Source of the DNA: Candidatus Aenigmatarchaeota archaeon
GTDB lineage: Archaea; Aenigmatarchaeota; Aenigmatarchaeia; GW2011-AR5
Length of the DNA stretch: 64,000 bases
Assembly: GCA_016184005.1 (NCBI GenBank)
Contig: JACPDL010000003.1
Coordinates: 171,632-235,631, forward strand
Direction of reading: 5' to 3'
The notes under the pieces were generated by a model, which worked only from the letters and a program-made list of their open reading frames with translations, was not told the origin of the DNA and ran no database searches. The stretch's first letter is position 1. Each line of letters opens with the position of its first letter. Below, piece by piece: positions 3,565-64,000 of the stretch. A program made the position numbers and the translations under genes.

Positions 3565-3969
3565 CTATTCTACTATGACTCCGCCGGCCTGCTCTATCTT
3601 TTCTTTGGCCTTCTTTGAACAGCTGGGAATTCTCACTTTGACGGCAACGTTGATGGAACCTTTTGAAAGAAGTTTCTGGTAACCCATTGAAGACAGGTCA
3701 ATAACTTCCGCATGTTCCTGCACTGAAAGAATCTTTTCCACGTCACCGACATTGATTATTTTCATGGATTTCTTGTTGTGCCTTACAAAACCTTTGTATC
3801 CGTAGTGCTCCGGCTCGTAGTTTACAATATACGAATACTTGTGCTTGTGCGAGCCGCCGTAACCGCGCCCGCCCTTGCTGCCTTTTCCGCGGTGTTTCTT
3901 CTTCGAGCCCCAGCCGTGGGTATGCGTACCTCTCTGTCTTGTATCCTTTTTCCTGAAGCGTAGTGTCAT
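3565..3969 (-). CDS. rpl15: 50S ribosomal protein L15 (uL15)
   Basis: Gly/Lys/Arg-rich N-terminus (GSKGGRGYGGSHKHK), position before SecY. Confidence 0.8.
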   Translation of the reverse strand: MTLRFRKKDTRQRGTHTHGWGSKKKHRGKGSKGGRGYGGSHKHKYSYIVNYEPEHYGYKGFVRHNKKSMKIINVGDVEKILSVQEHAEVIDLSSMGYQKLLSKGSINVAVKVRIPSCSKKAKEKIEQAGGVIVE

Positions 3970-4337
3970 TCTTTAACCCTCATCTTTGCATATCTCTTCC
4001 ATTCCATGAGCCTCAGGCCGCCGTTATATCGCTCCTCCAGCAGTCTTGCTGTCGCTTCCGGCATCTTCAGGTCCTTCCGGCCCAGGCCGCCCTTTGCGCC
4101 TTTCTTCCTTGCAAACCTGTATACCTCTCTCGGATTCAGGGCAGAAAAATGATGGGTTCTTTCATCAACAAAAGATTCAGTCGGTTTCTTCTCGTATCTC
4201 AGGACGAGTTTCTCATGACCGTTCATGTCAACAAAGACAGTCCTTTTTTCATCTGCTCGTGTTTCCGTGGTGAAATAACCGAGAAAGCCAAAATCACTGG
4301 CAGGCTTCAGGAAAACCTTGTACTCGGGCATTTTCAC
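3966..4337 (-). CDS. Hypothetical 123-aa protein inserted between L30 and L15
   Basis: ORF overlapping neighbours by 4 bp on both sides (translational coupling); no family recognised. Confidence 0.4.
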   Translation of the reverse strand: MKMPEYKVFLKPASDFGFLGYFTTETRADEKRTVFVDMNGHEKLVLRYEKKPTESFVDERTHHFSALNPREVYRFARKKGAKGGLGRKDLKMPEATARLLEERYNGGLRLMEWKRYAKMRVKE

Positions 4338-6020: not shown

Positions 6021-6125
6021 CTTTTGGGGTTTATCTGCAAAAGCCTGAAAGGCTTTTGAGACACCAGAGAAGCTTTGCTTCTCTGAGTGCAAAGACCTTT
6101 TCTTTCCTAAAGAAAAGGTCTTTGT
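6021..6125. repeat. Family-B palindromic repeat element (three consecutive hairpins); copy 1
   Basis: gcaaaagcctgaaaggcttttg, agagaagctttgcttctct and aaagaccttttctttcctaaagaaaaggtcttt hairpins; near-identical inverted copy at 29001-29090. Confidence 0.7.
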
Positions 6126-6889: not shown

Positions 6890-6953
6890 AACAAATCCCT
6901 TTTCTTTAAGAAAGAAAAGGTCTTTGTATGTCCCAAAAGAAACTTACAAAAAC
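6890..6953. repeat. Family-A start-codon-abutting palindromic element, copy upstream of L19e
   Basis: Reverse complement reads ttttgtaagtttcttttgggacatacaaagaccttttctttcttaaagaaaagggatttgtt immediately followed by the ATG of L19e. Confidence 0.7.
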
Positions 6954-12342: not shown

Positions 12343-12975
12343 TTACTCGCCTGCCTTTGCGGCTTCTGGAGCAGCGTCAATGTTCTTTTCTTCAATCTTC
12401 CTCATCGTGATGAGCTCGGGCTGATTTATCATTATTTTCACCGTTATGCCGATGCTTCCGAGCTTGGGCGATGCCACAGCAAAGCCGGTCATAACATCTT
12501 TCAGTGCCGGGTCTCCGGCTTTCTTCAAGTAACCGGCACTGAATCTCTGCGTCCTGCTTCTCTGTCCGGAAACCTTGCCTGAAAATACTATCTCGCAACC
12601 TATGGCACCCGATTCCATTATTCTCTGCAGATACTGGTTTCCCAGCCGCTTGTAGTTCACTCCCGATTCTATTGCGGCTGTAATTGCCTGCGCGACAACT
12701 GCCGGATTCATGTCCGGATCCATTATTTTCTGGACATCTATTTGCGGGTTTTCTATCTTGAACTTCTGTTTGAGCAATTCTGCGGTTTCCCTTATCTTTT
12801 CCCCGCCCGTGCCGATAACCAGTCCCGGCGTTGTCGTATGAATAACAATACGCGTTACTATCGGAGTGTGCTGTATTTCTATCTCGCCGCACTTTGCCTG
12901 AGTAAACTGACTCCTGATAAACTCCTGCAGATTGACCAGCTCCTTCGCTTTCTGTATGAAAATTCTTTCCTTCAT
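12343..12975 (-). CDS. rps3: 30S ribosomal protein S3 (uS3)
   Basis: KH domain plus uS3 C-terminal domain. Confidence 0.9.
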   Translation of the reverse strand: MKERIFIQKAKELVNLQEFIRSQFTQAKCGEIEIQHTPIVTRIVIHTTTPGLVIGTGGEKIRETAELLKQKFKIENPQIDVQKIMDPDMNPAVVAQAITAAIESGVNYKRLGNQYLQRIMESGAIGCEIVFSGKVSGQRSRTQRFSAGYLKKAGDPALKDVMTGFAVASPKLGSIGITVKIMINQPELITMRKIEEKNIDAAPEAAKAGE

Positions 12976-13034
12976 AACAAATCCCTTTTCTTGAAAGAAA
13001 AGGTCTTTGTAAACCCCAAAAGAACTTACAAAAC
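12976..13034. repeat. Family-A start-codon-abutting palindromic element, copy in the L22-S3 intergenic region
   Basis: Reverse complement ...ttttgtaagttcttttggggtttacaaagaccttttctttcaagaaaagggatttgtt-ATG(S3). Confidence 0.7.
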
Positions 13035-13052
13035 CTTTTCTTTAGTTAATTA

Positions 13053-17367: not shown

Positions 17368-17748
17368 CTATCTGACCGCTTTTCTGCTGCCTTTATTGCC
17401 CTTTCTTCTTGGTATCTTGGGAGAAGCTTCGCTTCTCCGAGATTCCAAAAAGCTGCGCTTTTTGAGAATGTTGAATTCTGTCATCATCATGCCTCTTATA
17501 AAATTTGGATCAAAAGAAATTATATCAGCAAACTTATCTGCTATTTTATCTGCACTCAAATTCATCAGCCAATACTGCGTTGCCAAATATTCTGGCAAAG
17601 ATTGTGCAAGCCCATCATCCCTGACTTGCATTTCTAATGCGGCATATGTGCCTATATATCTCGATCTCTTAATTCCAGGATCATCTAGCGTTCTTGTTCC
17701 AACTATTATTTCCTCGAAATCTATGGCGCCTGTTGTCTGGTATGTCAT
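17368..17748 (-). CDS. Hypothetical 126-aa protein between L3 and L4; its 3' end overlaps a MITE-like repeat
   Basis: Intact ORF in operon orientation; C-terminal codons run into repeat copy M3 (17416-17468). Confidence 0.35.
   Translation of the reverse strand: MTYQTTGAIDFEEIIVGTRTLDDPGIKRSRYIGTYAALEMQVRDDGLAQSLPEYLATQYWLMNLSADKIADKFADIISFDPNFIRGMMMTEFNILKKRSFLESRRSEASPKIPRRKGNKGSRKAVR
17416..17468. repeat. Family-M MITE-like element, truncated copy (hairpins 1 and 4 only)
   Basis: cttgggagaagcttcgcttctccgagat tccaaaaagctgcgctttttgagaa matches the ends of the copies at 36970-37076 and 20469-20575. Confidence 0.7.
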
Positions 17749-18864: not shown

Positions 18865-19347
18865 TTATCTGTGATCATCAAGACTTTTCATTAAATCTCT
18901 TACATCGGGAGGGTTTTGCATGTATGATTTTAAGTCCGGCGCTTTTCTTCTCGCTTCCTCTTCCCTGCCAAGAACTATCAGCGTATCCGCGCAGCATATT
19001 TGCCTTTGTTCTCTTTGGTAAATGCCGTCGCTAAACACCCAGGAATTGACTTCAGGGTTCCCCGGCCACGGGTTGGTTCCAAAATAACCAAAGACTTCAG
19101 CTATCTGTTTCCCATCGTTGCCCCACAAAGCCATTATCAAGAAATCATCCGGTTCAAATAACTCGGTGTATTGTTCAAAAATCTTTCCAATAAAATCAGG
19201 CTTATTTAGGTCTATATAAGTCTGTGGAAGGTTGACGGAGCTGTCGTAGGCGTCTGTGAAAAGAGTTTCATGGACATAAACCCTTGTTGGCTTCACTGCA
19301 TGCTGCATCGAAAATCTTCTTGAGAAAGGCATAGTAGTCACATTCAA
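18865..19347 (-). CDS. Hypothetical protein, member of a tandem paralog pair (shared PWPGNPEV-SWVF-DGIYQR-QR...LIVLGREEEAR...NPPDVRDLM core)
   Basis: ~50% identity over the C-terminal 110 aa with ORF 19611..20081. Confidence 0.45.
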   Translation of the reverse strand: MNVTTMPFSRRFSMQHAVKPTRVYVHETLFTDAYDSSVNLPQTYIDLNKPDFIGKIFEQYTELFEPDDFLIMALWGNDGKQIAEVFGYFGTNPWPGNPEVNSWVFSDGIYQREQRQICCADTLIVLGREEEARRKAPDLKSYMQNPPDVRDLMKSLDDHR

Positions 19348-19610: not shown

Positions 19611-20081
19611 TTAACTTCTCATTAAATCTCTTACATCTGGAGGATTATCCATGTAGTGTTGTAAATTTGGTGATTTTATTCTTGCTTCTTCTTCTCGCCC
19701 AAGGACAATCAATGTTTCTCCGCAAGCTATAGGTCTTTGTCTTCTTTGATAAATTCCGTCCCTAAAGACCCAAGAACGCACTTCAGGATTTCCAGGCCAT
19801 GGATCAGTTCCAGAATAACCAAAAACTTCAGTAATTATATCTCCATCGTCACCCCACAAAGCAGCGATCAAAAAATCTGTAAGTTTGAAGATTTTTCTAT
19901 CCGTTGCAAAAATGTCCAAAACGTGACTTAAGCCACTATCACTATGATAGTGAATTAGAGTCTCCTTTTTCGGTAGGCGACCGAAGGCGTCAACATAGCC
20001 AGCTTCATGAAAATAAACCCTTAACGGTTGTCTCACATGCGTTGAAACCCTGTCTAGGAACGGCATAGTATTCAAACTCAC
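19611..20081 (-). CDS. Hypothetical protein, paralog of 18865..19347
   Basis: Shared conserved core; abuts the start of the PKD-repeat protein gene. Confidence 0.45.
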   Translation of the reverse strand: MSLNTMPFLDRVSTHVRQPLRVYFHEAGYVDAFGRLPKKETLIHYHSDSGLSHVLDIFATDRKIFKLTDFLIAALWGDDGDIITEVFGYSGTDPWPGNPEVRSWVFRDGIYQRRQRPIACGETLIVLGREEEARIKSPNLQHYMDNPPDVRDLMRS

Positions 20082-22141
20082 TAAACATCTTCGTAAACAA
20101 TCTCGATGCCGACCTTGCCGGAGACTGTCGTGTCAGAAGCTGCCGAGAATTCTATCGTGTTCAGCTGCCTGAAGTATTCCTTTGGTATGGCTTCGCCTAT
20201 GATCTTGTTGTCGTTCAATATTACAGCAGCGCCGCGGGGCAGCACAGTGATCCTCGCGGACTTGAAGCCCTGCAGCTCGTTGTCCAGCGTGAAATCAAAC
20301 CTGTCCTGCGTGGCTTTCTCCACGTCAGCGATAACAGAAGCCCTGATCTCGTAAACAGCCGGCGTCCAGAATATGAATCCAGACGATGTGGCCCTGATCT
20401 TGAGCAGGCCCTCCGCATCTGCATTAACCGGTATTATTAATCTGCCTTTTTCATACCTGGCGGCAAAATTCTCAAAAAGCGCAGCTTTTTGGAATTCTCG
20501 AAATCCAAAGGATTTCGGAATCTCGGAGAGACGGAGTTTCTCCGAAGATCTCGGAGAAGCTTCGCTTCTCCCAAGATTAGCAGTCTTCAATGCTGCATTG
20601 TCAGGCACAGGCTCAGGTTTTCCCCTGAATAATTCCTCATCATCAAGCGTAACGACAAGCTCCCCGAGCCTGTTTGTTTCCTTGACTTCTATAACAACCT
20701 CCTTGACAAAGGATTTCGGCACGTCAAGCCTTATCTCATTGCTGCCGAACAAGAGGCCGTTGAACAGCCTTTTAGCCGACACGAATGAATCCTCTTCCTT
20801 GAAATTGGCGATGTCTATGCCGAACTCCAGAAGCCTTTTCTTCTCGCCCGGTGTCTTTCCGTCTTCATCAACAATCCCAAGGGCACCAACCGTTATTGTG
20901 ACACTGGAAGGCGCCAGATCAATCAGCCCTTCAGCATCACGCGCATTGAGGGTGGCTATGTATCTGCCATCCCTCTGGTAAATATGGGTAAGTGTCTGTA
21001 TTGATTCTACTGTCGGCAGGGATTGTGCCTGGCCGTCACCAAAATCCAATACGCACGAGACAAGCCGCCTCTGCAGGTCCCTGCAGCGTGCGGCAAATGT
21101 TACCTGCAGCGGAGCAGGGCCGCTTGTCGGCGTTGCCTGCAAGTCCGTAGTAGGCGCATTGCCTATATCCGATTCAACCACGATTGTGACTTCAGCAGGC
21201 GTAGCGTCTATTCTGCCCCTCTCATCAGAGGCCCGGACCTTTGCTATCCTTCGCAGGTCGCTAACCTCCGGGTTGACGTAAACATGGCTGATCTGCTGCG
21301 GCGTTTCTATATTGAGCAGGTTTTGCTGCTCCCCGTCGCCGAATTCTATGACGCATGAGCTGATATCGAAGTTAGCAGAAAAACACAGGACATCAAAGTT
21401 TACCAGTAAAGGCGATTTTCCTCTCACCGGGAAGGCGCTGATGAAAGTCTCAGGCTTGTCGCTAAAGCCGGGCAATACCTGTATCATGATTCCGGCGGGC
21501 GTCTGGTCCCCTGCGCCGGAGTCGTCTCTCGCGCTAAGTATAGCCGGGCGGAAAATGATTCTTTCCCTTTCGTTCTCGTAAGTATGAAGAACAGTCTGCG
21601 GCGTTTCAGCGTTTGTAAGCGCCTGCTTAGCCCCGTCGCCGAAATCCAGTTCGCATGAAGAAATCAACCCATCGTCGTCCTTGCATGTCGCTATGAATGT
21701 GACTTCCAATGGCGATTCGCCTGTCGTCGGAAATGCCTGCAAAAATGTCTGGGGCTCAATGTTTGGCCTCACAACGCTGATTGTTATCAAAGAGGGCGTC
21801 TGGTCGCTGTTGCCGAAGCTGTCTGTTGCTGTAAGCGTGACAACAAAGTTGCCTGTCGTGGAATAGGTGTGGGTTATTGTCTGAGGCAGCTGTATCCTCT
21901 GGAGAATCTGGTTCGTGCCGTCGCCGAAGCTGATTATGCACGAAGCGATCTCAATGTCGTCCTTGCACAATGCCGTAAATATGACTGTCATCGGCGCGTT
22001 GCCAGAAATCTGCGATGCCGTCAATGTAGTTTCAGGAGACGTCGCATCCTGTATTGAAATAAGAACAATCTGGGCGCTAACAGTGCTGACTAGAATCATG
22101 AGCGCCATCAACGCCGATAAAAGTCCTGTTACTCTTGCCAA
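20081..22141 (-). CDS. Secreted surface protein with four PKD-like repeats and a C-terminal domain containing an in-frame MITE-like insertion
   Basis: N-terminal signal peptide MARVTGLLSALMALMILVSTVSAQ; four ~95-aa repeats each with an FGDG motif; segment LGRSEASPRSSEKLRLSEIPKSFGFREFQKAALFE is encoded by repeat copy M2. Confidence 0.6.
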   Translation of the reverse strand: MARVTGLLSALMALMILVSTVSAQIVLISIQDATSPETTLTASQISGNAPMTVIFTALCKDDIEIASCIISFGDGTNQILQRIQLPQTITHTYSTTGNFVVTLTATDSFGNSDQTPSLITISVVRPNIEPQTFLQAFPTTGESPLEVTFIATCKDDDGLISSCELDFGDGAKQALTNAETPQTVLHTYENERERIIFRPAILSARDDSGAGDQTPAGIMIQVLPGFSDKPETFISAFPVRGKSPLLVNFDVLCFSANFDISSCVIEFGDGEQQNLLNIETPQQISHVYVNPEVSDLRRIAKVRASDERGRIDATPAEVTIVVESDIGNAPTTDLQATPTSGPAPLQVTFAARCRDLQRRLVSCVLDFGDGQAQSLPTVESIQTLTHIYQRDGRYIATLNARDAEGLIDLAPSSVTITVGALGIVDEDGKTPGEKKRLLEFGIDIANFKEEDSFVSAKRLFNGLLFGSNEIRLDVPKSFVKEVVIEVKETNRLGELVVTLDDEELFRGKPEPVPDNAALKTANLGRSEASPRSSEKLRLSEIPKSFGFREFQKAALFENFAARYEKGRLIIPVNADAEGLLKIRATSSGFIFWTPAVYEIRASVIADVEKATQDRFDFTLDNELQGFKSARITVLPRGAAVILNDNKIIGEAIPKEYFRQLNTIEFSAASDTTVSGKVGIEIVYEDV
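20469..20575. repeat. Family-M MITE-like element (four consecutive hairpins), full copy lying in frame inside a CDS
   Basis: ~95% identical to the reverse complement of 36970-37076. Confidence 0.75.
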
Positions 22142-26971: not shown

Positions 26972-28174
26972 TCAGGCGAGAGACCGGCACTTTCCAGGAC
27001 CTCGGTAAGGTATTTCATGGGCCGCATAAAATTCTTCTGATGTCTTGTAGCCAAGCGACTTGATTCTGGAATATATGCAAGGACGGGTTATACCGAGTTT
27101 TACTGCAGCGGCAGTCATATTTCCATCAGCCGCTTTAAGCGCCTCAGCCACTGCTTTCTCCGGTCGTTTGGTTCGGGATCTTTCTATCCCATAGGCTCTG
27201 CGAAAGTCTTCAGGAGACGGATAACCTAATTTCGTGATATTATATCTCAGTTGCCTGTCGCTTAACCGGAGGTCGCGTGCGGCGGCAGTCATGTTTCCTC
27301 TGCTTGCTCTAAGCGCCTCAGCTATAAGCTGTCCGCTGAATGCCCGCATCGCGGATGCGTAATCGCCGGGTTGCGCGTACACGGCTCCCGGCTGTTCTTC
27401 GCTTTTCTGTGATTTGCCCGTTTTTCCGCGCAGTATGCTGGGACAGATTTCATCGCCTTCGGACATCACGAAACCGTACAGCAGGATATTGCCGAGTTCC
27501 CTCACGTTTCCCGGAAAATCGTATTCCAGCAGCGCAGACACCGCTTCCGGCGTTAATGTTTTTCTGGCGCTGTTTTGCCTGCACAGCCGGTCCATATAAA
27601 ACCGCGCAATCGGTTCTATATCTTCCCTGCGCTCGCGGAGGGGCGGCATGCAGATCTCCAGGGCGCACAGCCTCTGGTAAAGTTCCTGCCTGAATCCGCC
27701 TTTGTCAGAAAGGTCCCTGCTGGTGGCGGATATTATCCTCACATCGGTATCAGACTGCTTGGTGCCGCCGACAGGTATGAATTCGCCGGTTTCGAGCGCC
27801 CTGAGAAATTTCGGCTGCACATCCATCGGAAGCTCGCCTATTTCATCAAGAAAGAGGGTGCCGCCGTCTGCGCTTTTTAGAACACCCGTGTTGCGGCGAT
27901 ACGCCCCCGTGAACGAGCCCTTTTCATGCCCGAAAAGAATTGACTCTGCAAGTTCGCGCGGTATGCTTGCGCAATCCAGCGGATAGAATAAGGCGGAACT
28001 GCGCCCTGAATTGCGGTGAAGCTGGCGTGCCACAAGCTCTTTTCCGGTCCCTGTTTCGCCTGTTATGAGGACAGGATAATCATAAGCCGCAAACTTCTTT
28101 ATTTTCTGCCGCACGCCTTCTATTTGTACGGACGTTCCTACTATTTCGCATTGTGGATTAAGGCCGCGCATCAT
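26972..28174 (-). CDS. Sigma-54-interaction-domain AAA+ transcriptional activator (bacterial enhancer-binding-protein type), no receiver domain, two tandem Fis-type HTH at the C-terminus
   Basis: Walker A GETGTGKE, ESILFGHEKGSFTGA (GAFTGA-type loop), Walker B GGTLFLDEIGEL, duplicated HTH (NMTAAARDLRLSDRQLRYNITKLGY / NMTAAAVKLGITRPCIYSRIKSLGY). Confidence 0.8.
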   Translation of the reverse strand: MMRGLNPQCEIVGTSVQIEGVRQKIKKFAAYDYPVLITGETGTGKELVARQLHRNSGRSSALFYPLDCASIPRELAESILFGHEKGSFTGAYRRNTGVLKSADGGTLFLDEIGELPMDVQPKFLRALETGEFIPVGGTKQSDTDVRIISATSRDLSDKGGFRQELYQRLCALEICMPPLRERREDIEPIARFYMDRLCRQNSARKTLTPEAVSALLEYDFPGNVRELGNILLYGFVMSEGDEICPSILRGKTGKSQKSEEQPGAVYAQPGDYASAMRAFSGQLIAEALRASRGNMTAAARDLRLSDRQLRYNITKLGYPSPEDFRRAYGIERSRTKRPEKAVAEALKAADGNMTAAAVKLGITRPCIYSRIKSLGYKTSEEFYAAHEIPYRGPGKCRSLA

Positions 28175-29000: not shown

Positions 29001-29090
29001 CCCTTCTTTGTAAAGAAGGTCTTTGTGCACCGAAAGCAAAGCTTTCTGGCATCTCAAAAGCCTTTCAGGCTTTTGCAGACAAACCCCAAG
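29001..29090. repeat. Family-B palindromic repeat element, inverted copy 2
   Basis: Reverse complement ttggggtttgtctgcaaaagcctgaaaggcttttgagatgccagaaagctttgc... matches 6021-6125. Confidence 0.7.
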
Positions 29091-29154
29091 AAACAGAGGA
29101 CTTCGCAAATATTAAGGGATTGTGAGAATGGAAGATCGCTTGCATGGCAAGAGG

Positions 29155-29276: not shown

Positions 29277-29327
29277 CATCCAATCCCTTTCTTAAAAAGA
29301 AAGGTCTTGGAGAACCCCAAAGAATAA
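29277..29327. repeat. Family-C repeat atccaatccctttcttaaaaagaaaggtcttggagaaccccaaagaataa, copy 1
   Basis: Near-identical copy at 36851-36900. Confidence 0.7.
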
Positions 29328-29397: not shown

Positions 29398-29508
29398 GGG
29401 CTCGTGGTCTAGTGGAATGACGCGACGTTCGCAAAGAGGAGAAATATGTATCTCTCTCAAAAATATTGAAATACGTCGAGGCCGGGGGTTCGAATCCCCC
29501 CGAGTCCA
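29398..29508 (+). tRNA. tRNA-Ala (anticodon CGC) with a ~39-nt intron at/near position 37/38
   Basis: Acceptor GGGCTCG/CGAGTCC with G3:U70 Ala identity pair; anticodon stem CGACG/CGTCG; loop TTCGCAA; T-arm GGGGGTTCGAATCCCCC; discriminator A; CCA not encoded. Confidence 0.8.
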
Positions 29509-29931: not shown

Positions 29932-30011
29932 AGGTCTTGGGTTAATATTCAACACTATAAAGAGACTCTCAATTTTTGAACGCTTAAATTTATACTGGAG
30001 ACTACACATTC

Positions 30012-30596
30012 ATGTTCAATCTAACGCTAGATACATCTTGTTTTTCTCTAAGAAAAGAGGAAAATTCTTTGTTGAACGAGCTTTTAGAATTACAAGCAGA
30101 TTCAAAAATATTGTTGTACTACGCACCACGAACTTTACAAGAACTTATGATGTCCATTGCAAAGAAAAAAGAATTACCGAAAGTAATTGAAATGAAGATA
30201 AAATATAGGTTTCGAGATGTGTTCAGAGATTATTTAGAAAATATGGACGAGATTGACCCAGAACTCGAATGGGAAGACGAGTTCCACGAAATAGGACTAT
30301 TTGTTACAAGAGTATGTCTCGAAATTACTGACAAAAACGTAATAGAAAAGTTAGAAGTGTCAGAAGAAAACTTACGTAGATATTTGGATAGCCAGAAGAA
30401 CCATAACAGTCATACAGATATTGATATATTCACATTTCATGTTATGAACAAAGGTAATATATTCCTGACTAAAGATGTACCGTTGTTTGTAAGTAATCAA
30501 AAAACAAGAGAAACACTGGAAAATAAATATAACACAAAAATTAGACTCCTAAATAAAGATTTTATTGAAGAATTAAAAAATATGATAGAGGCTTGA
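30012..30596 (+). CDS. Hypothetical protein, possibly a PIN-like nuclease
   Basis: N-terminal LTLDTSCF (PIN motif-I-like Asp), downstream acidic residues, C-terminal IFLTKDVPLF (PIN motif-IV-like T-x-D). Weak assignment. Confidence 0.35.
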   Translation: MFNLTLDTSCFSLRKEENSLLNELLELQADSKILLYYAPRTLQELMMSIAKKKELPKVIEMKIKYRFRDVFRDYLENMDEIDPELEWEDEFHEIGLFVTRVCLEITDKNVIEKLEVSEENLRRYLDSQKNHNSHTDIDIFTFHVMNKGNIFLTKDVPLFVSNQKTRETLENKYNTKIRLLNKDFIEELKNMIEA

Positions 30597-31777
30597 TGCT
30601 TATGGAGTCTATGAATTATAAAAGTCCAATTAAGGTCAGAAATATAGAAATAGTAAATCAGTTAAAAGAGTTCTATTCTCTCTCTTCAAATATTGATTTA
30701 CCAAAAGACATAGAAACTCAAGTAATTGACATTGCCGTCAAGAAGATTGATCAAGATAAAAAAGTTGTAGAAAAAAGATTATTGGGATTAAATAAAGAAG
30801 ATGAATTTGTACTGACTTCTCTTCTGTTAGGAAATGCCCTTCAAGTTACAAGGCTTTCACAACAAAAGATTACACAAGATTTAGATTATCAAATACCAGA
30901 TTTTTTAGTATGCACTAGGGTTCCAAAAATTGTAGATAAAGATGGGGATAAAATAAACAGGTTTTTTGTAGAAGTCAAAAAATTATCAGAGAATGAAAGT
31001 GATTTTAAAATAACGCAGGATTATTTTAATAAACTTAAGAAATATTGCAAAACTTACTCTTTGCCACTTTACTTTGCAATTAAGTTAGAGCTTGGAGGTG
31101 TTGGTTTTTCTCAATGGGCTTTAATTTTCTCTGATACCGTAGAAAACTCTGGACAAATTAAAAAGCTAAAAATAAGAAAAGATAGCAAAGAAGAAGATTG
31201 TTATTTATTTACATTGAAAGACTTATTATCGAAAGACTTCTCAGGTTTATGGATGGACAATCATCTATTATTTTTGTCGGAGGGTTCGGTCTATAGAAAG
31301 GTTTATGATATTAATAAAGAATCCCCAATTCATATTACATCTGAAACAGGCGAAGATTTGGGAGGACTTGTAGAAGTAGAATTAAAAAACGGTAGTATTT
31401 CTGAAAAAGTAACGTTCGAAAAAGATAAACATGATGTCAGAGATATAATTTTCTATAATATTGCAATGAGAATAGCCAGAGGTAAAGAAACAATACAGAC
31501 TACAAATACGACAACTGAGAAAATTATAGAAGCTGATAAAAACTATTCAATCCCGCTTTATCATTTAGTTTTAGAAATTTACCTTCACTTACGTTCAAGA
31601 TTTGGAGAAAGCTGGAAGGAACCCAGATCAGATATAAGTTTTTACTTATCCCACTTAACAGACTTTGATTATAAAATATCTTATTTTATAAGAGATATAA
31701 TAATTAATTTACACAAGAATAATATAATTAAATTAATTAGAATGGTACCAGATTTTTTAATGGAAAATGATGACTAA
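30593..31777 (+). CDS. Hypothetical protein with a PD-(D/E)xK nuclease-like core
   Basis: IPDFLVCTRVPKIVDKDGDKINRFFVEVKK = PD ... E-V-K spacing typical of the restriction-endonuclease-like fold; start overlaps the upstream stop (ATGA). Confidence 0.45.
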   Translation: MMLMESMNYKSPIKVRNIEIVNQLKEFYSLSSNIDLPKDIETQVIDIAVKKIDQDKKVVEKRLLGLNKEDEFVLTSLLLGNALQVTRLSQQKITQDLDYQIPDFLVCTRVPKIVDKDGDKINRFFVEVKKLSENESDFKITQDYFNKLKKYCKTYSLPLYFAIKLELGGVGFSQWALIFSDTVENSGQIKKLKIRKDSKEEDCYLFTLKDLLSKDFSGLWMDNHLLFLSEGSVYRKVYDINKESPIHITSETGEDLGGLVEVELKNGSISEKVTFEKDKHDVRDIIFYNIAMRIARGKETIQTTNTTTEKIIEADKNYSIPLYHLVLEIYLHLRSRFGESWKEPRSDISFYLSHLTDFDYKISYFIRDIIINLHKNNIIKLIRMVPDFLMENDD

Positions 31778-31989
31778 TTTAATTTCTCCTTAACTTTCCC
31801 ATAAACCTTGAATGGCTTGTCAGACCTAGCATGTTTTCTCAAATAATGCAAAGAACTCTTGTTTATGCCAATTTTCTTTGCTTCTGACTGGGATAAGCTT
31901 AATATTTTTTGCCTCAACTTAAAGTCATCCTCTCTTTTCAATACTAGTGAAGGCTCTGAAAAGTCGATGCTAGGCTTCTTACCTATCAA
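31774..31989 (-). CDS. Small hypothetical ORF (71 aa) at the distal edge of the island
   Basis: Intact ORF; no family recognised. Confidence 0.2.
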   Translation of the reverse strand: MIGKKPSIDFSEPSLVLKREDDFKLRQKILSLSQSEAKKIGINKSSLHYLRKHARSDKPFKVYGKVKEKLN

Positions 31990-32135
31990 GTAATGAGCCA
32001 GTTCTTGAGCTTTAAATAAAGTGATTTTCAGTTTTCAAATCCTTATGTCCTCGAGTCCATTGAACCTCAGGTATAAGCCACGATGCTATCCAAATCTTTA
32101 ATAGTATTCTTCACTATTAATTATAGGCGAATTGT

Positions 32136-36287: not shown

Positions 36288-36824
36288 TTATTCCTGTTCT
36301 TTCAGTCTTTTTATGATTAAATTTACTATCATTCCGGGCTTTTTCTTCGCGGTGTCTACAACAATGTCAGCTTCGTTTTTCTGGTCAAAATAGTCGAAAC
36401 CGTATATGCGAAGCCAATTGCTCCTTTCCAATCTTTCTTTTTTAACCAGCTTTTTTGCAGCTACTGTAGTTGGAATGTTATCTCTTTTTGCATAGCGTTG
36501 TGCCCTGACATTTCTAGGTGCTTTGAGCCATACAGACAAGTCATCAAATCCTTTGAGCATTCTTACAGCTAGCTTGCCATCAATTACAATATTTCCTTTT
36601 TTTGCATAAGTTTTTGCCAGTTCATCAGAATTTATGTGGAATTTTTTCAGGCCTTTTATTTTCCACATGGCTATGCTCTTGTCGGTTTCTTTTGCTTTGG
36701 CACCGGCATGGCTTTTGTTGTAGTCGCCAACGGAAAAATGCTTCAATCTCAGCTTCTTGGCAAGCAGCTTCGCTGTGGTTGAGGAGCCGCAGCCGGGCTG
36801 CCCGGAAATAACTATTACTGCCAT
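36288..36824 (-). CDS. cmk: Cytidylate kinase (archaeal type)
   Basis: P-loop VIVISGQPGCGSST, ~178 aa, archaeal CMP-kinase-like. Confidence 0.65.
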   Translation of the reverse strand: MAVIVISGQPGCGSSTTAKLLAKKLRLKHFSVGDYNKSHAGAKAKETDKSIAMWKIKGLKKFHINSDELAKTYAKKGNIVIDGKLAVRMLKGFDDLSVWLKAPRNVRAQRYAKRDNIPTTVAAKKLVKKERLERSNWLRIYGFDYFDQKNEADIVVDTAKKKPGMIVNLIIKRLKEQE

Positions 36825-36850
36825 CTGCTAATCTTTGTTTCTCAGCTTAA

Positions 36851-36900
36851 AATCCAATCCCTTTCTTAAAAGAAAGGTCTTGGAGAACCCCAAAGAATAA
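36851..36900. repeat. Family-C repeat, copy 2
   Basis: aatccaatccctttcttaaaagaaaggtcttggagaaccccaaagaataa. Confidence 0.7.
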
Positions 36901-36969
36901 ATATGGCTGCTTTGTGTCTTGCTATCGGAACTACAAACCAAAGGCTTTCTGCTTGGAGAACCCCAAAGT

Positions 36970-37076
36970 CTTGGGAGAAGCGAAGCTTCTCCGAGATCTT
37001 CAGAGAAACCTCGTTTCTCTGAGATTCCGAAATCCTATGGATTTCGAGAATTCCAAAAAGCTGCGCTTTTTGAGAA
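36970..37076. repeat. Family-M MITE-like element, full copy: four consecutive perfect hairpins
   Basis: gagaagc-gaa-gcttctc; cagagaaac-ctc-gtttctctg; cgaaatcc-tat-ggatttcg; caaaaagc-tgc-gctttttg. Flanked by the 19-bp direct repeat aataaatatggctgctttg (36896-36914 and 37077-37095). Confidence 0.75.
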
Positions 37077-37083
37077 AATAAAT

Positions 37084-38256
37084 ATGGCTGCTTTGCAGCC
37101 TATTAAATCTTCGGTTAGAACGATAGTTATGCTTGAAAAATACAAGGAAATGCTGGAGGACAGGACGGCGATGGGCGGGCTCGCGACATTCGTGCCGAAC
37201 AAGAAGCTTCCAGTATATAACTGGCTGTATTTTAAGGAGGGCTTCTCGAAAGAACTGGTTAATTTTCTGGCAGAACAATTCAGGCTGCAGCCCGGCATGA
37301 CTGTTCTGGATCCTTTTTGCGGCTCGGGCACGACACTGGTTGCGTGCAGAGAGCTCGGCGTCGACAGCATAGGCTTTGACGTCCTGCCGCTGTCTGTTTT
37401 TGCCGCGCACGTGAAGACAAGAGGCTACGATACTGCAAAACTGAAAGAAGCGTCCGCACAGCTGTTTTCCCAGAGGTTCATGAAAATAAAAGAAGAATTT
37501 CCGCCTATAATGAAAAAAGCATTCTCAAAATACGCCCTTGAAGACATATCTTTCTTTCGCAGAAACATCGCGCAGATAGAAGACGGCACCATGAGGAATT
37601 TCTTTTTGCTGGCCCTGATAAGCGCTGCCATAAGGGTCAGCTACGCCTGGAAAGACGGTGCGGTGATAAAAATAAGGAAATCCCACAGGCCGCCTTTACG
37701 ATTCATGCTGAAAAGAACGATACAAAGAATGGTAAAAGACGCGGGTAAAATGAAAGGCCGGGCACAATGCACTGTTCAGCAGCGCGATGCAAGGACAATG
37801 AAGCTTGATGATGAAACCATAGATGCAATCATAACCTCCCCGCCTTACCTCAACCAGATAGATTACACAAAGGTCTACGAGATCGAGAACCTTTTCATCA
37901 GGGGCTTATATGAAAAACCGCCAATGAGGTCTTACATAGGGCTTGAAAGCGACACAGAGTTCCTGCCTGAACTGGATCTGCCAAAAGCAGCCAACGCCTA
38001 TTTCCATGATATACATGAAGTCCTGGAAGAAATGCACCGTGTGTGCAAACCGGGAGCACCGGTCGCTGTTGTCGTCGGCAACGCCTATTTTCCAGGCAGG
38101 ATAGTAGACAGCGACCTGATTATATGCCATCTGGCCGATTCAGCAGGATTTAAGATTGACAGAATATCTGTATTGAACGCGCGCTATGCACTGGAAGACC
38201 GCACAACAAAGAAAGGCGTGCTCCGGGAAAGCATGATAATAATGCACAAATCATAA
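37084..38256 (+). CDS. DNA methyltransferase (N6-adenine/N4-cytosine type, SPPY motif), apparently solitary
   Basis: Motif I LDPFCGSGTT and motif IV ITSPPY. Track ORF begins at 36919 by reading through the repeat; start placed at the ATG inside the duplicated 19-mer. Confidence 0.65.
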   Translation: MAALQPIKSSVRTIVMLEKYKEMLEDRTAMGGLATFVPNKKLPVYNWLYFKEGFSKELVNFLAEQFRLQPGMTVLDPFCGSGTTLVACRELGVDSIGFDVLPLSVFAAHVKTRGYDTAKLKEASAQLFSQRFMKIKEEFPPIMKKAFSKYALEDISFFRRNIAQIEDGTMRNFFLLALISAAIRVSYAWKDGAVIKIRKSHRPPLRFMLKRTIQRMVKDAGKMKGRAQCTVQQRDARTMKLDDETIDAIITSPPYLNQIDYTKVYEIENLFIRGLYEKPPMRSYIGLESDTEFLPELDLPKAANAYFHDIHEVLEEMHRVCKPGAPVAVVVGNAYFPGRIVDSDLIICHLADSAGFKIDRISVLNARYALEDRTTKKGVLRESMIIMHKS

Positions 38257-38381
38257 AAAATAAATTGTAAGTTTAAAAATTCAACGCTTAATCAAGGAAT
38301 GGTTAAAAATGAACTATAGCAAAGAACTGTCTTTGAATATATTTCTTTGGGACATCTGCAGGAATTCTCAATTCCTGCGAT

Positions 38382-38445
38382 GCAAGAGAAGCCTTGCTTC
38401 TCTTCGCATACAAAGACCTTTCTTTGCTAAAGAAAGGGATTTGTT
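38382..38445. repeat. Family-A start-codon-abutting palindromic element
   Basis: gcaagagaagccttgcttctcttcgcatacaaagacctttctttgctaaagaaagggatttgtt-ATG. Confidence 0.7.
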
Positions 38446-39273
38446 ATGAATAGAATAGTTTTTGTCGGGACGGGCGGCGGACGCCATGCTGTTTCTTCGC
38501 AGGTGCGGAAAACAGGCGGAATATTTGTAGAGCTTGACGGCCTGAAATTCATCATAGACCCGGGTCCCGGATCTCTGGTTTTTTCAAGATTCCTGGGATT
38601 AGAGCCTGAAAAATGGGACGGCATGCTCCTTTCACATTATCACATCGACCAATCAAGCGACGCAAACGCGCTGATAGACGGAATGAAGGACCCCGCACCC
38701 GTAGGTGAAGAGGCTGCAAAAGAAATATTCCTGATTGCAGAAGAACACTGCGTCAACATGAAAAAAGACCATGACGAATATCCAAGAATAAGCAAATTCC
38801 ATCAAAGGCTGGTCAAGAACCTGCATGCAGCGAAGCCTGGGCAGGATATTTCCCTGGGAAAAATAAAGGTAAAAACAACCGGAACGGAACACGGCGTGCC
38901 GAACGTGGGCTTTGTGATTTCAGGATCGCTAAGAATAGGCTATCCTTCTGACGGGATATATTATTCAGGGCAGGAAAAAAAATTTGATAACTGCGACATA
39001 CTAATCTTGAATGTCCCTATCCCTAAAGGCGGCGAATCGAAGCACAAGGTTTACATGAGCGTGGACGACGCAATAAAGCTTGTGAAAAGCATAAACAGCA
39101 AGCCCAGAATTGTAATTCTGACTCATTTCACCCCGTGGATGCTGCGCTCTAACCTGTTCAAGCAGGCAAAAATAATGCAGGATGCAACCGGCGTCAAAAC
39201 GATCTTTGCGCAAGACTTCATGGAAATGGACATGAAAAACTTCCAGACAAAAGTATTGCAATTGAAACTCTAA
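38446..39273 (+). CDS. Metallo-beta-lactamase-fold hydrolase
   Basis: LLSHYHIDQSSD (HxHxD-type motif) plus downstream His/Asp ligands. Confidence 0.65.
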   Translation: MNRIVFVGTGGGRHAVSSQVRKTGGIFVELDGLKFIIDPGPGSLVFSRFLGLEPEKWDGMLLSHYHIDQSSDANALIDGMKDPAPVGEEAAKEIFLIAEEHCVNMKKDHDEYPRISKFHQRLVKNLHAAKPGQDISLGKIKVKTTGTEHGVPNVGFVISGSLRIGYPSDGIYYSGQEKKFDNCDILILNVPIPKGGESKHKVYMSVDDAIKLVKSINSKPRIVILTHFTPWMLRSNLFKQAKIMQDATGVKTIFAQDFMEMDMKNFQTKVLQLKL

Positions 39274-60279: not shown

Positions 60280-60351
60280 GAAAAAGAAAGGTCTTTGTCA
60301 GTTTCTTTGGGGTTTACAAAGACCTTTCTTTTGTAAAGAAAGGGATTTGTT
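60280..60351. repeat. Family-A start-codon-abutting palindromic element
   Basis: aaagaaaggtctttgt-cagtttctttggggttt-acaaagacctttctttt-gtaaagaaagggatttgtt-ATG(RFC). Confidence 0.7.
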
Positions 60352-61302
60352 ATGGAAGAGATATGGACAGAAAAGTACAGGCCCAGATACCTCAAGGATC
60401 TTGCTGGCCAGCAGCATGTTGTGAAGCGGCTGGAGTCCTTTGTGAAGAACAAATCACTGCCTCACTGCCTCTTTGCCGGGCCCGCAGGCGTTGGAAAAAC
60501 CACTTGTGCATTATGCATTGCGCAGGAGTTCTTTGGCAATTCATGGAAGAGCAATTTTCTCGAGCTTAATGCATCAGATGAGCGCGGAATAGACACAATC
60601 AGAGTCAAGGTGAAGGATTTCGCAAGAACAATGCCAATAGGCGGCTCCTTCAAGATAATTTACCTGGACGAAGCAGATTCCCTGACAAAGGATGCCCAGC
60701 ATGCGCTGCGCAGGACCATGGAAAGTTATGCGGCCACGTGCAGGTTCATACTCGCCTGCAATTACAGCAGCAAAATAATACCGCCGATCCAAAGCAGGAC
60801 GGTTATTTTTCGCTTCCATCCTCTTGGCAAAGAGGACATGGAAAACTGCCTGAAAAAAATAGCAAAAGAAGAAAAGCTGAAAGCAGACGATGGCTCTTAC
60901 AAAGCTATACTGCATGTAGCTGAAGGCGACATGAGGAAGGCAATTAATATACTGCAGACATCCGCAGCACTGGACGGAAAGATAACGGAGAAGGAAGTCT
61001 TTGCAGCAACAAGCCATGCAGATCCGGAAAGGGTAAAGAGGATGCTTTCCCTTGCAATTGAAGGCAAATTCAAGGAAGCCAGAAAAGAGCTTACGTCACT
61101 GCTCTTCGAGGAAAGCCTTGCGGGCGAGGACGTGATCAAGGAGATATATTCACAAACAGTCAAGCTCGATATCGATGACAAGAAAAAACTCCAGCTTATT
61201 GAAAAGATCGGCGAATATGAATTTCGCCTGACAGAAGGCAGCAATGCCCAGATCCAGCTTGAGGCGCTGCTCGCGCAGATGGCGCTAGCGGGGAAGAACT
61301 AG
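60352..61302 (+). CDS. rfcS: Replication factor C small subunit
   Basis: Walker A GPAGVGKTT, DEAD box DEADSLT, SRC motif, clamp-loader C-terminal domain; no intein. Confidence 0.9.
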   Translation: MEEIWTEKYRPRYLKDLAGQQHVVKRLESFVKNKSLPHCLFAGPAGVGKTTCALCIAQEFFGNSWKSNFLELNASDERGIDTIRVKVKDFARTMPIGGSFKIIYLDEADSLTKDAQHALRRTMESYAATCRFILACNYSSKIIPPIQSRTVIFRFHPLGKEDMENCLKKIAKEEKLKADDGSYKAILHVAEGDMRKAINILQTSAALDGKITEKEVFAATSHADPERVKRMLSLAIEGKFKEARKELTSLLFEESLAGEDVIKEIYSQTVKLDIDDKKKLQLIEKIGEYEFRLTEGSNAQIQLEALLAQMALAGKN

Positions 61303-61376: not shown

Positions 61377-61561
61377 GCCGAGGTAGTTCAGCGGTAGAAC
61401 GCCACGCTCATAAAGGCTTTTCTTTTAAAAAAGAAAACCCTGGAAAAGAAACAGAAATAAAAATTGGAAAGAAAACTTTCAAGAATTATGAGCTTTGAGA
61501 TGCTTTGCATCAGTGATAATGAGAAACGTGGAGGTCGTGAGTTCGAACCTCATCCTCGGCA
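61377..61561 (+). tRNA. tRNA-Met (anticodon CAT, elongator-type) with a ~113-nt intron (61414-61526)
   Basis: Acceptor GCCGAGG/CCTCGGC; D-arm GTTC-AGCGGTA-GAAC; anticodon stem CCACG/CGTGG; loop CTCATAA; T-arm GTGAG-TTCGAAC-CTCAT; discriminator A. Confidence 0.7.
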
Positions 61562-63291: not shown

Positions 63292-64000
63292 TTATTATCC
63301 CTCCAAATTTTTTTCGCGAAATTTTGTTGCGCATTATTTTCTTCGTTTTTTACAATCTATACGATGCCCAATAGAAAACCTTAATATAGAGGTTCCCTAT
63401 ACAACATCTACTTCAGAAAAAGACCAACCAACTGAGTGTAACTCCGAGTTCGTGAAGAACTCGGTGCTTTACTCTTTTTACAGTCCCTTAAATACTTTTT
63501 TATAAGCGGGTATATGTGTTCAAAAAATTACACGACAACCCACATTTCTCAAAAAACAACAGCTGGTTGTGTTCCGCCATCAAAAGGATACAACTTATAT
63601 GGAACCTGTGGGTATTTTTGGCTTACACCGGGGGTTTCAGTCGCTATTTTCCTTCCCAAGAACCACATCCACAACTTCACGATACTTCTTGCTGTTGTGT
63701 TTTTTCATCTTTCTTGCTCGGGAGATTTTATCCGCAACATTGCTTAAAACTGCTGTCTTTTCTGCAAAGGATTTCTTCAAAATCCTTTGAGAAATCCAAA
63801 TCAAGCTTTGCTTGATTTAGGATTAGACAGCAGATACAAGGAAGAACAGAGTTCTTCCTGTACAGGTGAAACTTGTTTCACCATGTATTACATAAACAAT
63901 GTTGGGATGACATGCTCTCAGAAACCCACGACTTTTCTGCAAAGGACTTCAGAAAAGTCCTTTTGCATAGAAAATCTGTAGGATTTTCTAATGAATTTAG

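Follow-up and report, generated by a model that had tools for sequence, protein, structure and literature searches.

Hairpin-array elements inserted in frame in genes of a groundwater Aenigmarchaeota clade: a probable family of PATE-like mobile repeats

The stretch of DNA analysed here (hereafter the window) comprises 64,000 nucleotides of contig JACPDL010000003.1 from the Candidatus Aenigmatarchaeota archaeon assembly GCA_016184005.1; this 64-kb window contains archaeal ribosomal-protein genes and two intron-containing tRNAs. On its reverse strand, the gene at 20081..22141 (-) encodes a secreted 686-aa protein consisting of four ~100-aa PKD repeats and a C-terminal domain. Within this gene lies copy A of the element that is the subject of this work, a run of four hairpins (H1-H2-H3-H4) of 108 bp at 20469..20576 (+), whose + strand sequence is TTCTCAAAAAGCGCAGCTTTTTGGAATTCTCGAAATCCAAAGGATTTCGGAATCTCGGAGAGACGGAGTTTCTCCGAAGATCTCGGAGAAGCTTCGCTTCTCCCAAGA. 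Its hairpins span 20473-20491 (H1), 20499-20517 (H2), 20524-20544 (H3) and 20553-20571 (H4); H1, H2 and H4 have perfect 8-bp stems with 3-nt loops, and H3 has a 9-bp stem including one G-T pair. Relative to shuffled sequence, the folding z-scores of copy A are -4.9 (RNA, gene strand) and -5.5 (DNA). A preliminary description, made from the letters of the window alone, had reported four perfect hairpins over 107 bp (20469-20575); the element and its four hairpins are real, its extent is one base pair longer than claimed, and perfection holds for three of the hairpins. Copy A is read on its reverse strand and contributes 36 codons in frame (residues 523-558 of the PKD protein; peptide NLGRSEASPRSSEKLRLSEIPKSFGFREFQKAALFEN), in agreement with the same description.

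The history of this insertion can be read from the sister metagenome-assembled genome (MAG) RIFCSPHIGHO2_01_FULL_AR5_44_11 (GCA_018304565.1), which is 93-98% identical to the window across 11.6 kb of synteny. Its PKD ortholog (P0001), the closest one, is 94% identical outside the insert, reads ...KTANL|AARYEKG... across the site without these 36 codons, and lacks at the DNA level exactly 108 bp. The proposed insertion of a mobile repeat into coding sequence is thereby confirmed. Immediately upstream of copy A, the pentanucleotide CAAAA (20464..20468, +; CAAGA in the empty ortholog site) fits the family consensus CAAWA (W, A or T) described below. Over the 370 codons shared with the ortholog, the ratio of nonsynonymous to synonymous divergence (dN/dS) is 0.13 (dS 0.21), with values of 0.10 upstream and 0.20 downstream of the insert; codon comparison thus indicates an intact host gene under purifying selection and not a pseudogene interrupted at this point, the case that the preliminary description had named as its own refutation. 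The insertion is presumably selfish and tolerated, in what we presume to be a tolerant loop; an AlphaFold model of the C-terminal domain, built on a 2-sequence alignment, had a confidence (pLDDT) of 37.7 and is unusable for placing the insert.

Copy C, which the preliminary description missed, is a 54-bp terminal-only form (H1+H4) at 17415..17468 (-). It is inserted in frame, close to the 3' end, in an open reading frame (ORF) located between rpl3 and rpl4 (17368..17748, -), in which it encodes ILKKRSFLESRRSEASPK. The ORF specifies a 126-aa conserved hypothetical protein identical to MBI2232729.1 (Candidatus Aenigmarchaeota MAG, locus tags HYU56_). Precisely the 18 codons of copy C are missing both from the sister MAG's homolog (108 aa) and from that of a 67%-identical outgroup (107 aa), so that the insertion is the derived state, and the DNA of the relative shows an exact 54-bp gap. 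The pentanucleotide CAACA directly 5' of copy C (17469..17473, -) is also present in the empty site. The host gene (17368-17748 -; 3672-3998 on the related contig L030) has no Pfam match. This 107-126-aa hypothetical gene, wedged between rpl3 and rpl4, is conserved in this Aenigmarchaeota clade.

Copy B is a 108-bp element in the opposite orientation to copy A (36969..37076, -), between two divergent genes, one at 36288..36824 (-) and the other an N6/N4 DNA methyltransferase gene running from its likely ATG at 37129 to 38256 (+). Copies A and B differ by six substitutions (102/108 positions, 94% identity); the inverted copy had been announced at 36970-37076 with ~95% identity, of which the copy itself holds and the figures are slightly revised. 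Shuffles of the window gave 0 matches of the copy A/B kind. Hairpin 3 distinguishes the two copies by its loop and by two stem pairs, of which one (A-T versus G-C) is fully compensated and the other is A-T versus G-T, so the compensated substitution that had been claimed between them is real. The folding z-score of copy B is -6.9. The mechanical ORF 36919..38256, which starts at a TTG, reads through copy B in the same frame as in the PKD gene, and this extended product is the source of the earlier statement that the methyltransferase locus makes the same peptide. In the extended ORF, Pfam matches do not start before residue 112, the ATG at 37129 is in frame, and copy B is surrounded by promoter-like repeats in the divergent intergenic region; for these reasons copy B is probably an untranslated 5' leader or intergenic, and the statement probably does not hold. 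Its two flanks (37077-37095 and 36952-36968) recur uninterrupted as a 36-bp duplicate (CAAAGCAGCCATATTTATT|CTTTGGGGTTCTCCAAG) at 36879..36914 (-), a paralogous empty site without target duplication.

Beyond these copies, the family was drawn from ~0.46 Mb of sequence, including the window, part of the sister MAG and metagenome contigs. Species-representative genomes were scanned with a hairpin-1 pattern and metagenomes with a hairpin-4 pattern. With the former, the sister MAG yielded ~20 copies and other uncultured archaea a few, and matches in bacteria were single unrelated hairpins; the latter added 36 contigs that probably represent the same groundwater type, including one of an ENA groundwater assembly with the label Hain. 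Twenty-three copies were delimited in the window and the sister MAG, and 40 non-redundant copies bounded by H1 and H4 were obtained after adding the metagenome scan: 16-17 of the form H1-H2-H3-H4 (108 bp), 18 of the form H1-H4 (54 bp) and a few H1-H2-H4 (78-81 bp). Other forms are truncated H1-H2-H3, H3-H4 and solo H4, together with diverged arrays that have different stems in the same format. Each module measures 26-28 bp and follows the next head to tail, with (T)TCTC, an 8-9-bp purine-rich arm, a 3-nt loop, a pyrimidine-rich arm, and GGAA or NAAGA; H1 and H4, at the ends, are constant, and H2 and H3, in the interior, are optional. Scans of viral contigs for H1 and H4 gave 0 matches, with no sign of a viral vector. 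As far as these searches show, the family is limited to one groundwater Aenigmarchaeota (DPANN) clade, and our reading of the literature found no description of such elements in Aenigmarchaeota. Since the modules are tandem, mutually similar and variable in number, one might suspect that the arrays arose locally from 27-bp tandem repeats through slippage or gene conversion, or even that they are an assembly artefact, and that they are not mobile. Such an origin has a practically negligible probability: near-identical copies occur at about 40 unrelated loci with unrelated flanks and in independent assemblies (NCBI MAG, Rifle MAG, JGI, ENA and Logan contigs), and their exact boundaries against empty alleles, in the PKD, rpl3-rpl4 and AlkD gaps, refute it.

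Five comparisons between filled and empty sites (the PKD gene, the rpl3-rpl4 ORF, an AlkD gene, a paralogous pair on contig L066 and the flank duplicate of copy B) reveal sharp ends and exact insertions of 108 or 54 bp. The AlkD gene of the sister MAG (P0003, 268 aa) carries a 108-bp copy that is absent from the AlkD gene of the window-type genome (P0008, 231 aa), and the 36-aa insert is missing from 44 of the 44 aligned homologs (taken from 120 best matches). The polymorphism is thus reciprocal, the window genome having copies A and C and no AlkD copy, and the sister MAG the reverse. Sequence comparison indicates that both lineages gained copies after their divergence (dS about 0.2), and from this reciprocity it follows that the family is active now, or was recently, in both. 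An 80-bp copy on another contig (L055 2758-2837) was dropped as a candidate empty/filled pair, as homology to the window stops exactly at the element. That copy sits precisely where synteny with the window breaks (~602), the next ~1.2-1.9 kb being unrelated, which suggests that the elements mark or mediate rearrangements.

The ends of the element are asymmetric. Directly before the initial TTCTC, the bases C, A, A, W and A are found in 27, 27, 32, 30 and 26 of the 40 copies (background 22-28% per base), and on the 3' side T at +1 (24/40) is the only preference. Four of the five empty sites carry this pentanucleotide (CAACA, CAAGA, CAACA and CGAAA), which consequently belongs to the target and not to the element. 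Junction microhomology at the five pairs amounts to 3, 2, 1, 0 and 0 nt with no constant repeat, and there is thus no target-site duplication (TSD). The element's own 3' end, CAAGA, resembles the target CAAWA; it was considered as a duplicated target and rejected, the right end being near-invariant, the left flank variable, and each empty site holding a single pentanucleotide. These features bear on the MITE-like label of the preliminary description, that is, on an internally deleted derivative of a DDE transposon propagated by cut-and-paste. The family is indeed small (54-108 bp), multi-copy (about 40), structured and too short to encode a protein, and its ends are about 70% alike once one is reverse-complemented. 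This likeness is the only one between them, and it reflects the fact that both are palindromic hairpin modules: the extreme tips differ (TTCTCA... against the reverse complement TCTTGG...; 5' tip TTCTCAAAAAGC versus reverse complement of the 3' tip TCTTGGGAGAAGC) and do not form terminal inverted repeats (TIR). Moreover, none of the five comparisons shows a TSD, and the target motif stands on one side only, where DDE insertion would leave symmetric flanks. A classical MITE is thus very improbable, and of the label only the short, multi-copy, transposase-less character survives.

How such elements can reside in genes is suggested by their composition. Lengths divisible by three are found in the 54- and 108-bp forms and in 36-37 of the 40 copies overall, and stop codons are rare: four of the six frames are open in the consensus, five in copy A and three to five in all 40 copies. 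At least four open frames occur at a frequency of 0.0004 in mononucleotide and 0.0026 in hairpin-preserving shuffles (5000 shuffles). Insertion into an ORF therefore adds 18 or 36 hydrophilic residues and does not destroy the gene. About a quarter of the copies are intragenic; most are intergenic, frequently 1-17 nt from a stop codon, and the 55-bp copy (L011) and another 80-bp copy (L002) are not within long ORFs. By Pfam or orthology, the in-frame hosts are the PKD gene, an AlkD-like gene (PF08713, whose match is split into two stretches), TruD, VTT/DedA, CxxCxxCC and DUF998 genes, the rpl3-rpl4 ORF and P0002. The 316-aa CxxCxxCC ORF (L034 3-953, +) even holds two separate in-frame 54-bp copies in opposite orientations.

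The preliminary description had gone further and proposed exaptation, the 36-residue peptide being a functional module of the PKD surface protein and of other hosts. In line with this, the frame LGRSEASP... recurs in the PKD and AlkD-like proteins and in P0002, P0005 and P0006, and the PKD host gene appears to be under purifying selection. However, two other frames, ILKKRSFLESRRSEASPK and I[LF]GEAxLLRDSKKLRFLR, are used in TruD, DedA, CxxCxxCC, DUF998 and the rpl3-rpl4 ORF, so that no single peptide can be the product. The nearest PKD ortholog works without the insert, all the aligned AlkD homologs lack it, and a search of the 37-aa insert peptide against 1.84 billion cluster representatives returned only three real matches (P0002, P0005 and P0006). 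A further match, P0004, was dismissed as spurious, being a translated satellite-like tandem repeat. In the AlphaFold model of the AlkD-like host (45-sequence alignment), pLDDT is 93-98 in the helical repeat fold and 42-49 in the 36-residue insert, which is predicted to form a tolerant, low-confidence loop between helices 117-126 and 165-173. Exaptation was thus not borne out, and we give it only a very slim chance. For annotation, the consequence is that these elements lengthen ORFs or create spurious ones, such as the N-terminal 'extension' of the methyltransferase and the small ORFs P0005 and P0006, and that they add loops of 18 to 36 residues to real proteins in DPANN MAGs.

The hairpins themselves are strikingly well preserved. 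In a formal covariation test on 21 distinct full-length copies, 98.6% of the stem cells are paired, and 6 of 34 pairs (11 cells) show changes on both sides, against 1.9 pairs (2.1 cells) in column shuffles, of which 0/500 reached this number; when the partners are slid, 0-1 pairs are doubly changed. Diverged arrays display several compensated pairs per stem, for example CGAAAAAAC/GTTTTTTCG versus CAGAGAAAC/GTTTCTCTG in L019. The covariation that had been proposed as a check among copies is therefore present, and the aligned sequences indicate that the stems are maintained by compensatory changes. A search with nhmmer and a 108-bp profile gave many redundant reverse-strand and cross-module matches, the modules being palindromic and paralogous, and the mismatch counts per pair taken from these matches have qualitative use only; in them, G-T and A-C single mismatches are about equally frequent, favouring neither transcript strand. 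Loops are found in both reverse-complement orientations for all four hairpins (GCGCAGC/GCTGCGC, GCTTCGC/GCGAAGC, CGGAG/CTCCG and AAA/TTT). Loop flipping is the footprint of intrastrand template switching or of recombination between palindrome arms, processes which also 'repair' stems without selection. Given the balanced mismatches, the flipped loops and the reading of either strand by host genes, causes at the DNA level (hairpin recognition by the enzyme that moves the element, correction of palindromes, or the two combined) are at least as likely as selection on RNA.

Of the earlier suggestion of selection on secondary structure, as DNA or RNA, the maintenance of the stems holds, but the RNA part is not established. 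The array might still be a functional RNA or regulatory module kept by the host, such as a REP/BIME-like stabiliser of transcript ends, a terminator or a protein-binding hairpin. The compensatory changes preserving the stems would fit this role, as would a T5 run on both strands of H1, the other intergenic hairpin arrays of the window and the many intergenic copies located near stop codons, except that intergenic spacers here are so short that nearness to gene ends is expected anyway. Against such a role speak the reading of the element in both orientations, the absence of strand asymmetry, the reverse-complemented loops (a DNA-level event) and the polymorphism of copies between strains about 94% identical. 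Nor is there an Rfam match: in Rfam 15 the best score of the element is 13.9 bits (E = 1.4, mir-166 model, gathering threshold 60), which is chance level. A host-kept RNA is thus unlikely, but less so than a MITE or an exapted peptide.

The explanation that we favour, with a probability of about 0.6, is that the element belongs to a PATE-like non-autonomous mobile family, propagated by HUH single-strand transposition of the IS200/IS605 type and tolerated in ORFs. As published, PATEs and IS200/IS605 elements are marked by a short asymmetric target bordering the left end, which the sequence of the right end resembles, by subterminal hairpins at both ends and by the absence of TIR and TSD (PMC3119063). 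PATEs are in addition too short to encode a transposase, have a 4-6-nt targeting sequence, and include 52-bp 'terminal-only' forms arising by repeat-mediated core deletion (PMC3119063), and IS200/IS605 is the most widespread insertion sequence family in Archaea (PMC13343696). The present elements answer to this description by their lack of inverted terminal repeats, near-terminal palindromes, absence of TSD, short length and 5' target kept in empty sites (copy B excepted), and the 54-bp H1+H4 form is comparable to the ~52-bp PATEs of Haloquadratum. The combination of sharp ends, no TSD, no TIR, a 5' CAAWA and a 3' CAAGA would point to 'peel-and-paste' transposition by an HUH endonuclease, in which the subterminal hairpins H1 and H4 may serve as recognition structures for a transposase supplied in trans. 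The 54-bp form could be a 'terminal-only' version resulting from repeat-mediated loss of the core, and copies would survive where the added peptide falls in a tolerant loop, as predicted for the AlkD-like host and presumably for the PKD protein.

Several observations weigh against this interpretation. A tblastn search of the ~0.46 Mb with approximate IS608/IS200 TnpA and RAYT queries gave no match better than E = 1. In the element, only 4 nt precede H1 on the 5' side and 5 nt follow H4 on the 3' side, and the hairpins are perfect; the characterised ends of IS200/IS605 elements have longer spacers and imperfect hairpins. Copy B is inserted at TTATT|C, a departure from CAAWA. A distance of 3 kb separates copies A and C, which are inversely oriented; IS200/IS605 elements prefer the lagging-strand template, and here a strand bias is not visible, the number of copies being far too small for one to show. 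Transposition of a PATE-like element does not account for the role of the internal modules H2 and H3 or for the solo H4 copies. Finally, rolling-circle elements of the IS91/Helitron type would leave similar traces: they likewise combine an absence of TSD and TIR with a subterminal hairpin and a short specific target, and the flank preference A|T seen here is a further likeness. IS91 targets CAAG/GAAC, which the element end CAAGA recalls. On the other hand, the elements described here lack the TC...CTRR termini of Helitrons and have hairpins at both ends, and no Y2 transposase was seen.

Comparison with other repeat families delineates what is particular to this one. With the PATEs of Haloquadratum it shares, as said, the terminal features, but neither a cognate transposon of the IS605 type nor a TnpA turned up here, the perfect hairpins lie 4-5 nt from the ends, the core consists of further hairpin modules, and in-frame coding insertions are not reported for PATEs (PMC3119063). 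In-frame selfish repeats are known from genes of the reduced Rickettsia genome (Rickettsia palindromic elements, RPEs; Ogata et al. 2000/2002 as summarised in PMC10969869). These too are short palindromic repeats (about 100-150 bp) of a reduced genome, found both in intergenic regions and in frame within unrelated housekeeping genes, where they add a conserved peptide at predicted tolerant surface positions without inactivating the host protein. The present family differs by its archaeal host, its 2-4 tandem mini-hairpins instead of one long palindrome, the use of several frames, and the documented 5' target motif and absent TSD. The host being an archaeon, the family is best regarded as a functional archaeal counterpart of RPEs, by analogy, and not as a member. 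The REP/BIME repeats of gamma-proteobacteria, associated with RAYT proteins, are also hairpins of 20-35 nt with a conserved short flanking motif, forming mosaics with preserved stem-loops and probably moved by a HUH enzyme of the IS200 kind; however, REPs are extragenic and typically arranged in inverted pairs (REPINs), with a single-copy RAYT gene that REPs flank, whereas here the modules are direct, head to tail, and partly intragenic, and no RAYT was found in the ~0.46 Mb, a weak test with approximate queries. The BOX elements of Streptococcus pneumoniae resemble our arrays in their modular A-B(n)-C organisation, with constant terminal and variable internal modules and a stable structure. 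BOX modules, however, measure 45-59 bp and are bacterial and mostly intergenic, with ends and target features unlike those of the archaeal element. Tandem mini-hairpin modules, the stop-poor 54/108-bp design and the very short spacing between ends and hairpins set the family apart from PATEs and from RPEs, REPs and MITEs.

To our knowledge, selfish DNA inside protein-coding genes has essentially one textbook case, the RPEs, the mobilisation of which is still unexplained; the elements of this Aenigmarchaeota clade would be an independent archaeal case in another reduced, host-dependent lineage. Their anatomy is unusually clean: the ends are exact, five sites are available in the empty state, the 5-nt target lies on one side only, a 54-bp form reduced to the termini exists, and insertions are reciprocally polymorphic between strains about 94% identical. 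Both HUH single-strand transposition of a two-hairpin substrate and selection for frame-neutral, stop-free elements are thus directly testable. Furthermore, as the 3' end CAAGA recreates the target CAAWA, head-to-tail arrays could grow by self-targeted insertion, which, if true, would explain the genome-wide excess of tandem hairpin arrays. We raise, as a tentative possibility that we rate below even odds, that this family of 'coding-compatible' selfish hairpin elements is the first of its kind described in Archaea, colonising the ORFs of a gene-dense, reduced DPANN genome, moved by a hairpin-specific single-strand enzyme (HUH-type or other) and building its arrays by self-targeted insertion.

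Perfect short hairpins are altogether in excess in the window (91, versus 9-27 in shuffles). The surplus consists of intergenic tandem arrays of other sequence families in the same format, with a purine-rich arm and a 3-nt loop, at 6030-6125, 6891-6930, 12968-13043, 29001-29100, 29286-29327, 36849-36900, 38350-38448, 60283-60359 and 63757-63990. A ~50-bp repeat, TTCTTTGGGG..ACAAAGACCTTTCTTT-nnn-AAAGAAAGGGATTTGTT, runs right up to the ATG in at least four genes and stops ~25 nt short of a fifth (38409-38448, 60315-60354, 6891-6930(-), 12968-13024(-) and 36849-36900(-)); it is a palindromic motif with a promoter- or leader-like character. The two intron-containing tRNAs of the window, at 29398-29508 and 61377-61561, were detected by Rfam and missed by ARAGORN, and in related contigs (L039 ~6221 and L056 ~200) an H1-like hairpin (CCTCAAAAAGCAAAGCTTTTTGGG) adjoins or sits within a tRNA gene, possibly in its intron.

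Other features of the neighbourhood deserve mention. Between the PKD gene and rpl3, two tandem paralogous ORFs (18865-19347 and 19611-20081, -) encode proteins of 160 and 156 aa with no assigned function and share 75% nucleotide identity over 264 nt. The ORF at 26972-28174 (-) encodes an enhancer-binding protein with a full, bacterial-type sigma-54 interaction domain, an AAA lid and a Fis-type helix-turn-helix, which one would not expect in an archaeon and which may have been acquired horizontally. Further along, the region 30000-32000 is a low-GC island (30% versus ~45% elsewhere) spanning the ORFs 30012-30596 and 30593-31777.

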